Under the pieces are notes generated by a model. The model was not told the DNA's origin. It ran no database searches and was given only the letters and a program-made list of their open reading frames with translations. Both the position numbers and the translations under genes were made by a program. Shown here one piece after another: positions 5,741 to 5,850 of a stretch of DNA of 64,000 nucleotides. Location: the NCBI RefSeq assembly GCF_054482595.1, contig NZ_CM137008.1; one strand, given 5' to 3'. The first letter of the stretch is position 1. Each line of letters opens with the position of its first letter.

Positions 5741-5751
5741 GATTGGGAGTT

Positions 5752-5836
5752 ACCTGCCGGATGCGGCGTAAACGCCTTATCCGGCCTACGTTCAGCACGT
5801 TACCCGTAGGCCGAATAATATGCGTTGCATCCGGAG
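5752..5836. repeat. REP (repetitive extragenic palindromic) elements, two units, in the rlmG/fadH convergent spacer
   Basis: GCCGGATGCGGCGTAAACGCCTTATCCGGCCTAC-type consensus read directly. Confidence 0.65.
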
Positions 5837-5850
5837 CTTCAAATAACGAT

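Follow-up and report, generated by a model that had tools for sequence, protein, structure and literature searches.

Within the window, by which we mean the whole 64-kb stretch of DNA that was analysed, two convergent genes face each other across a short spacer. The left flank is rlmG, encoding the 23S rRNA m2G1835 methyltransferase (positions 4604–5740, plus strand), and the right flank is fadH (5851–7869, minus strand); both are found in the ORF list and in the annotation of E. coli XH990, where rlmG measures 1137 nt. Since rlmG ends at 5740 and the stop codon of fadH starts at 5851, the spacer (5741–5850) is exactly 110 bp long. A junction query of 1,110 nt was 100% identical to E. coli XH990 (accession number NZ_CP019359.1), and the window matches that strain at 100% across the two stretches compared (approximately 3 kb). 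The XH990 RefSeq annotation has rlmG and fadH at identical positions, with nothing in between. According to the ORF list, the spacer itself contains no ORF; it is touched by two mechanical ones with TTG starts, one (5743–5934, plus strand) running antisense into fadH and the other (5679–5885, minus strand) antisense into rlmG.

In E. coli K-12 MG1655 (NC_000913.3), the gene order at this junction is fadH (b3081), higA (b3082), higB (b3083) and rlmG (b3084), and the spacer between the outer genes spans 1055 bp; Table 1 of PMC5120126 lists, from the other end, rlmG, 283 bp, higB, higA, 44 bp and fadH. The ygjNM (that is, higBA) genes encode a functional toxin–antitoxin pair of the RelE type (Christensen-Dalsgaard et al. 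2010; PMC2814082). By profile matches, K-12 HigB belongs to PF09907 (HigB_toxin) and K-12 HigA to PF01381 (HTH_3). A tblastn search of the 64-kb window with both K-12 proteins gave no match (best E = 0.42). Since there is neither a HigB or HigA match nor an ORF within the spacer, the window carries an empty allele and is not a member of the K-12-type higBA type II toxin–antitoxin loci; from its sequence and the alignment with K-12, we call this form of the empty higBA site E110. In that alignment, the K-12 spacer pairs with the window spacer only at its first ~84 bp and its last ~31 bp, and the remaining ~945 bp, including higB and higA, have no counterpart in the window. The earlier note had placed higB-higA (ygjN-ygjM) between fadH and rlmG in K-12, which is right, and had described the gap in the window as about 110 bp with two REP units and no ORF, as we indeed find.

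The REP units in the spacer form an inverted pair. REP1 (GCCGGATGCGGCGTAAACGCCTTATCCGGCCTAC; 5756–5789, plus strand) is a canonical unit with an internal palindrome (5756–5769/5772–5785), identical in sequence to the K-12 REP at the same position and in agreement with the REP consensus (GCCGGATG...CTTATCCGGCCTAC), an imperfect palindrome of ~35 bp. It occurs in five copies with at most three mismatches in the window, versus 0.00 expected from shuffled sequences, and the other four copies differ from it by one to three mismatches. REP2 (GTAGGCCGAATAATATGCGTTGCATCCGGAGC; 5806–5837, minus strand), recognised by its inverted-repeat arms, is an inverted, shortened and degenerate unit. Arm 5777–5790 pairs with 5805–5818 and arm 5757–5764 with 5827–5834; the arms TTATCCGGCCTACG and CGTAGGCCGAATAA are 14 nt apart, an inverted arrangement with a short linker, and the two units thus form a tail-to-tail pair of the BIME type (BIMEs being mosaics of paired REPs). 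The pair is extragenic, lying between two stop codons, and multicopy: a 150-nt query finds a median of 29 places per genome (5,425 genomes). On either strand, the predicted folding of the 116-nt stretch is much stronger than that of shuffled sequences (z = −3.9 and −5.7). A scan of 5500–6100 revealed no terminator-like site, no T-tract or intrinsic-terminator pattern in the spacer and a single weak promoter-like match, at about chance level; Rfam, at the gathering threshold, has no match in the spacer. The established roles of REP and BIME elements suggest 3′-end stabilisation or termination. Most probably, the remaining REP pair would provide a shared, structured 3′ end for the convergent rlmG and fadH transcripts, a role that we infer.

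The states of the site were surveyed in 5,426 complete E. coli genomes. A match to higA was found in 4,377 of these (4,379 places, one on a plasmid), a match to the 5′ 232 nt of higB in 2,848 and a contiguous empty junction in 1,039; the last was called where one contiguous match covered at least 80% of the 150-nt junction query, which is possible only when the site is empty. As 1,049 genomes have no higA anywhere, against 1,039 with an empty junction, the empty site amounts to true absence. Full higBA therefore stands at ~52% (2,848), orphan higA at ~28% (~1,527) and the empty site at ~19% (1,039), while a cassette of a DUF1266 gene and higA occurs in two of the 5,426 “E. coli” genomes. The orphan-higA allele (e.g., in CX12; an example is at the retrieved locus L003:1197–1687) has a 324-bp deletion by which the operator/promoter and all of higB except its last 78 nt are gone, and it matches the orphan higA of strains CFT073 and NRG857c (PMC7232551); with higBA complete in K-12 and HS, variation at this locus had been shown before.

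In XH990, absence was told apart from relocation with a chimeric query, in which the fadH sequence of the window was joined to K-12 higBA in opposite orientation; because of this orientation, the two parts cannot merge into one place. The query finds two places in genomes that carry higBA and one place only in the XH990 chromosome, as it does in 13 out of 13 other genomes with the identical fadH allele. Hence, higBA is absent from the XH990 chromosome and was not moved elsewhere in it, a statement that holds for close copies at megablast sensitivity (at least ~85% DNA identity) and for the chromosome. These data bear on two points in the earlier note. The pair, for which absence and relocation had both been envisaged, is absent, as judged from the null tblastn result in the 64-kb window and the one place in the XH990 chromosome. 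The proposed presence/absence polymorphism of a toxin–antitoxin module is real, since between the same flanks the site is occupied in some strains (4,377 with higA, 2,848 with 5′ higB) and empty in others (1,039), out of 5,426. That reading is refined by a third common state, orphan higA, and by two distinct empty alleles.

Occupied E. coli alleles have the order rlmG, REP1, REP2, ~190 bp, higB, higA, a short hairpin (GCCGGATGCGTTGCATCCGGC) and fadH, with REP2 (...GCGTCGCATCCGGCA) to the left of the cassette and the REP-derived hairpin to its right. In Escherichia whittamii, a complete REP1-REP2 pair is present on each side of higBA, as direct repeats of ~80–95 bp; therefore, the E. coli hairpin is what is left of a second REP pair after its collapse, and direct repeats bracket the cassette. 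The REP units, earlier taken as marking the junction, are indeed at the site, both of them, but they are more than markers, bracketing the cassette in occupied alleles.

The common empty form, with a spacer of 117 bp, occurs in ~990 genomes, amongst them CH468, 98205, UM146, IAI39 and CE10. It consists of the left REP2 (...GCGTCGCATCCGGCA) joined exactly to the right flank (CTTCAA...), and, judging by this junction, it is the product expected of a crossover or slippage inside GCATCCGGCA. The rarer form, with a 110-bp spacer as in the window, is present in ~46 genomes, counted from the ranked list of matches as the top 43 with a 150-nt span and three with 148 nt; 14 are identical to the window. 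No occupied allele retrieved yields this form by exact recombination. The 5′ arm of the window REP2 (CCGTAGGCCGAATAA) differs at ~5 positions from REP2 of the occupied alleles and is closer to one 117-bp allele (E. coli E69) than to any of them, the REP2 loop is 7 bp shorter than in the 117-bp and occupied alleles, and several substitutions are peculiar to the 110-bp allele. As a model for the 110-bp junction, a simple crossover joining REP2 to the hairpin that follows higA was tried and rejected: even in the best version (crossover in GATGCG), the 5′ arm of REP2 is mismatched at ~5 positions. To obtain the allele from the 117-bp form, the 7-bp loop deletion and 4–6 substitutions would be needed. 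As it is not an exact crossover product, the 110-bp form is regarded as an older or further-modified empty allele, and its descent, from an occupied or from the 117-bp allele, is putative.

We also attempted to sort the site states by the haplotypes of the flanks, taking 490 nt from the 3′ end of rlmG and 990 nt from the start of fadH. This failed, as the haplotypes are mosaics in which genomes of one state do not group together. For example, FDAARGOS_943 (empty) and 23S01245-7 (full) have the terminal 490 nt of rlmG in common without a difference, and one FadH protein accession is common to FDAARGOS_943 (empty) and 33F4 (full). With flanks this mosaic, the number and direction of events inside E. 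coli are unreadable from the sampled sequences.

Beyond E. coli, one RlmG scan of species-representative genomes yielded 80 loci, with E. fergusonii, Salmonella and other Escherichia clades not among them. At ~68 of the 80 Enterobacteriaceae loci, the spacer is short (−4 to ~200 bp) and has no cassette. E. whittamii, whose RlmG shares 98.7% amino-acid identity with that of K-12, has higBA at the junction, and E. albertii and Escherichia sp. MOD1-EC7003 have a DUF1266 gene followed by higA there; higA is thus at the site in every non-coli Escherichia examined. The rlmG-fadH junction is likewise occupied by orthologous higBA in Pseudocitrobacter faecalis, Citrobacter sp. 18056, Citrobacter sp. 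Ct235, Kluyvera sp. CRP and Enterobacteriaceae bacteria RIT691 and 89, in all in at least five enterobacterial genera. In a comparison of eight taxa, the identities between HigA and HigB proteins rise and fall with those of RlmG and FadH (Mantel r = 0.85, permutation p = 3e-4), and they do so after removal of the near-identical E. whittamii (r = 0.76, exact p = 0.008).

Several of these loci show further peculiarities. The higB gene of Citrobacter sp. 18056 (L077:5353–5667) has an apparent 1-nt deletion near codon 10, with a probable frameshift, next to an intact higA; this is probably another case of decay in which the toxin goes first. Palindromic repeats stand on both sides of higBA in P. 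faecalis (L064:5138–5190 and 6080–6134) and in Enterobacteriaceae bacterium RIT691 (L079:5138–5200 and 6146–6171); they are of a family (CCCTCTCCC...GGGAGAGGG) different from the E. coli REPs. More distant HigBA homologues (58–60% HigB identity) occur at other sites in Cedecea davisae (L099:4001–4719), next to the gene for an HMA-domain P-type ATPase and tusA, and in Rahnella sp. AA (L101:4001–4719), next to asmA and cdh, in each case just upstream of a convergent gene, as at rlmG-fadH.

The explanation that we consider best, and likely to be correct, is that higBA was lost secondarily through the bracketing REPs and that the empty allele then spread; it is favoured because at least five genera have orthologous higBA at the junction, with a divergence that parallels that of the flanks. 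The proposed course of events would be the following. A cassette of a higA-type antitoxin gene and an upstream partner gene would have resided at the rlmG-fadH junction since before Escherichia split from related genera. Recombination or slippage between the bracketing REP copies could remove it cleanly. Such a loss should be non-lethal and would entail no post-segregational killing, because toxin and antitoxin are lost together or, as in the orphan-higA allele, the toxin goes first. The empty allele would then spread vertically and by homologous recombination through the flanking genes. In E. coli, the series of full, orphan-higA and empty sites would represent loss in progress. Taken together, the comparison of genera argues for a cassette that is an old vertical resident of the junction, lost many times, and not a recent horizontal arrival. 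As to polarity, the observations for loss are higA in the Escherichia outgroups and the co-divergence of cassette and flanks; those against are the mosaic flanks and the fact that E110 is not an exact recombinant.

The converse reading, which we hold to be unlikely, is that the donor lineage of the empty allele never had the cassette and that higBA entered other E. coli lineages horizontally at the REP-marked junction, in which case the 10–15-bp repeat flanking the cassette would reflect either duplication of the target or chance similarity of REP sequences. It accords with the view of chromosomal toxin–antitoxin modules as horizontally acquired (PMC7167474; PMC5120126). Homologues of HigB with ~71% identity are present on Erwinia plasmids, and the family is therefore mobile in principle. 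The junction is empty in most of the Enterobacteriaceae representatives, so vertical descent needs many independent losses, and REP2 of E110 cannot be derived from the sampled occupied alleles without extra mutations. However, the same reading has to accommodate higA at the site in every other Escherichia species examined and a cassette whose divergence follows that of the flanks across genera; moreover, the cassette comes with no integrase, transposase or terminal inverted repeats, and the three states (full, orphan higA and empty) line up as stages of decay.

Another possibility, which we judge to be distinctly improbable, is that the XH990 lineage lost higBA not by deletion in situ but when homologous recombination exchanged its rlmG-fadH region for the empty one of another E. 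coli lineage. The fadH gene of the window is 95.6% identical to that of K-12, against ~98% in the neighbouring 40 kb (a divergence of 4–7% versus ~2% in the surrounding DNA), identical or near-identical rlmG or fadH segments are common to empty and occupied genomes, and the flanks on which E110 occurs diverge by as much as 8% over 150 nt. Yet the raised divergence lacks a sharp boundary, no clean edge of a recombination tract being seen around the site when the window is compared with K-12. Furthermore, such an import would be a route of spread and not a separate origin, compatible with secondary loss through the REPs. The last alternative, that higBA collapsed out of the assembly or moved elsewhere, has no observation in its favour, is effectively refuted and retains next to no probability: 14 independent complete genomes share the identical 150-nt junction, 1,039 genomes have an empty one, K-12 higBA has no second place in the XH990 chromosome, and higA occurs at most once in almost every genome, nearly always on the chromosome.

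Secondary loss thus remains the preferred account of the empty site, and the junction holds other cassettes that are more novel than the empty site itself. In E. albertii, in MOD1-EC7003, in two of the 5,426 “E. coli” genomes and in a gut-metagenome enterobacterium, a 265-aa DUF1266 gene directly upstream of orthologous higA replaces higB (retrieved loci L014:5333–6568, L103:3001–4234, L013:~1870–1910 and L104:54–1387). The adjacent HigA is 80–96% identical to that of K-12, and the DUF1266 protein may be an alternative partner for this antitoxin. In E. albertii NBRC 107761, the DUF1266 ORF is apparently interrupted after a few codons by what we take to be an IS10-type end. In Enterobacter sp. 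kpr-6, a DUF3289 gene (YPO3983 family, 286 aa) and a DUF943 gene (175 aa) lie at the rlmG-fadH junction as a pair (L065:5297–6681), which suggests that the junction is a recurrent slot for small two-gene cassettes. For K-12 HigB and HigA, PADLOC gave no more than a PD-Lambda-2-like similarity, and the DUF1266, DUF3289 and DUF943 proteins had no convincing match.

The junction partner of higA is HigB in E. coli, E. whittamii, Kluyvera, Citrobacter and Pseudocitrobacter, and DUF1266 in E. albertii, MOD1-EC7003 and the gut enterobacterium. From this distribution one may speculate, and we would give the idea rather poor odds, that the junction is an ancient slot in Enterobacteriaceae, faithful to its site, for two-gene cassettes under HigA control whose upstream partner is exchanged. 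DUF1266 would then be a new toxin, or an effector, that HigA neutralises or regulates, and excision would be driven time and again by REP families specific to each species. Were this so, the window would be one end-product of repeated cassette excision.

Elsewhere in the window, the fadH-ygjK spacer (8000–8190) holds a cluster of REP units, in which 8052–8133 corresponds to naRNA4 (RF02564; 74.7 bits, at the Rfam gathering score), the only match in 1–12000; this stretch aligns poorly to K-12 (112 mismatches in 8101–8350). The alx-sstT spacer (504–931) measures 428 bp and does not align with its 211-bp counterpart in K-12; it contains GC-rich palindromic sequence, e.g., GGGGGCGGCCAATCGCCGCCGCCCCC. 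At ~44055–44786, two adjacent units of ~355 bp (44055–44411 and 44431–44786), each of which also matches the neighbouring K-12 unit at ~91%, correspond by their coordinates to the tandem sibD/ibsD and sibE/ibsE type I toxin–antitoxin loci of K-12.

The empty higBA site is real but already known in kind, because variation at this very locus has been described (PMC7232551); it is an ordinary decay polymorphism of a toxin–antitoxin system. Strain-to-strain carriage and decay of chromosomal modules of this sort are well documented in E. coli, and an uneven distribution of toxin–antitoxin systems over the phylogroups was reported by Fiedoruk et al. 2015, as cited in PMC7167474; by itself, the finding therefore matters little. 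What is added here are firm frequencies of the site states, counted over 5,426 complete genomes, the exact sequence at which REP joins REP in the common 117-bp deletion, a second and rarer empty allele of 110 bp and evidence for the cassette as an old vertical resident that was repeatedly lost. At this locus, the gene content of K-12, including that of the ten-toxin-antitoxin deletion strains used in work on persistence, is unrepresentative of the species.

Compared with the K-12 higBA locus, the window has the same junction, the same flanking genes, the same REP1 and the same left-flank sequence, but the promoter/operator, both toxin–antitoxin genes and the REP-derived hairpin that follows higA are missing from it, and only the REP pair is left. 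The orphan-higA allele of CFT073 and NRG857c, the state of ~28% of the genomes, likewise represents this cassette in decay at this site; there, a 731-bp spacer still contains higA and 78 nt from the 3′ end of higB, whereas the window retains nothing. With the REP and BIME elements between other convergent E. coli genes, the pair in the window shares the imperfect palindrome of ~35 bp, the extragenic position, the multiple copies, the inverted pairing and the strong folding, and it differs in its REP2, which is shortened by the 7-bp loop deletion. A close parallel in the literature cited is the decay of ccdO157 at a conserved intergenic site (Mine et al. 2009, cited in PMC7167474). In both cases, as far as the account in PMC7167474 goes, a module at a fixed position of the core genome has intact, degenerate and absent alleles among strains; unlike that module as described there, higBA is bracketed by REP copies that give an exact 117-bp junction, and it co-diverges with its flanks across genera.
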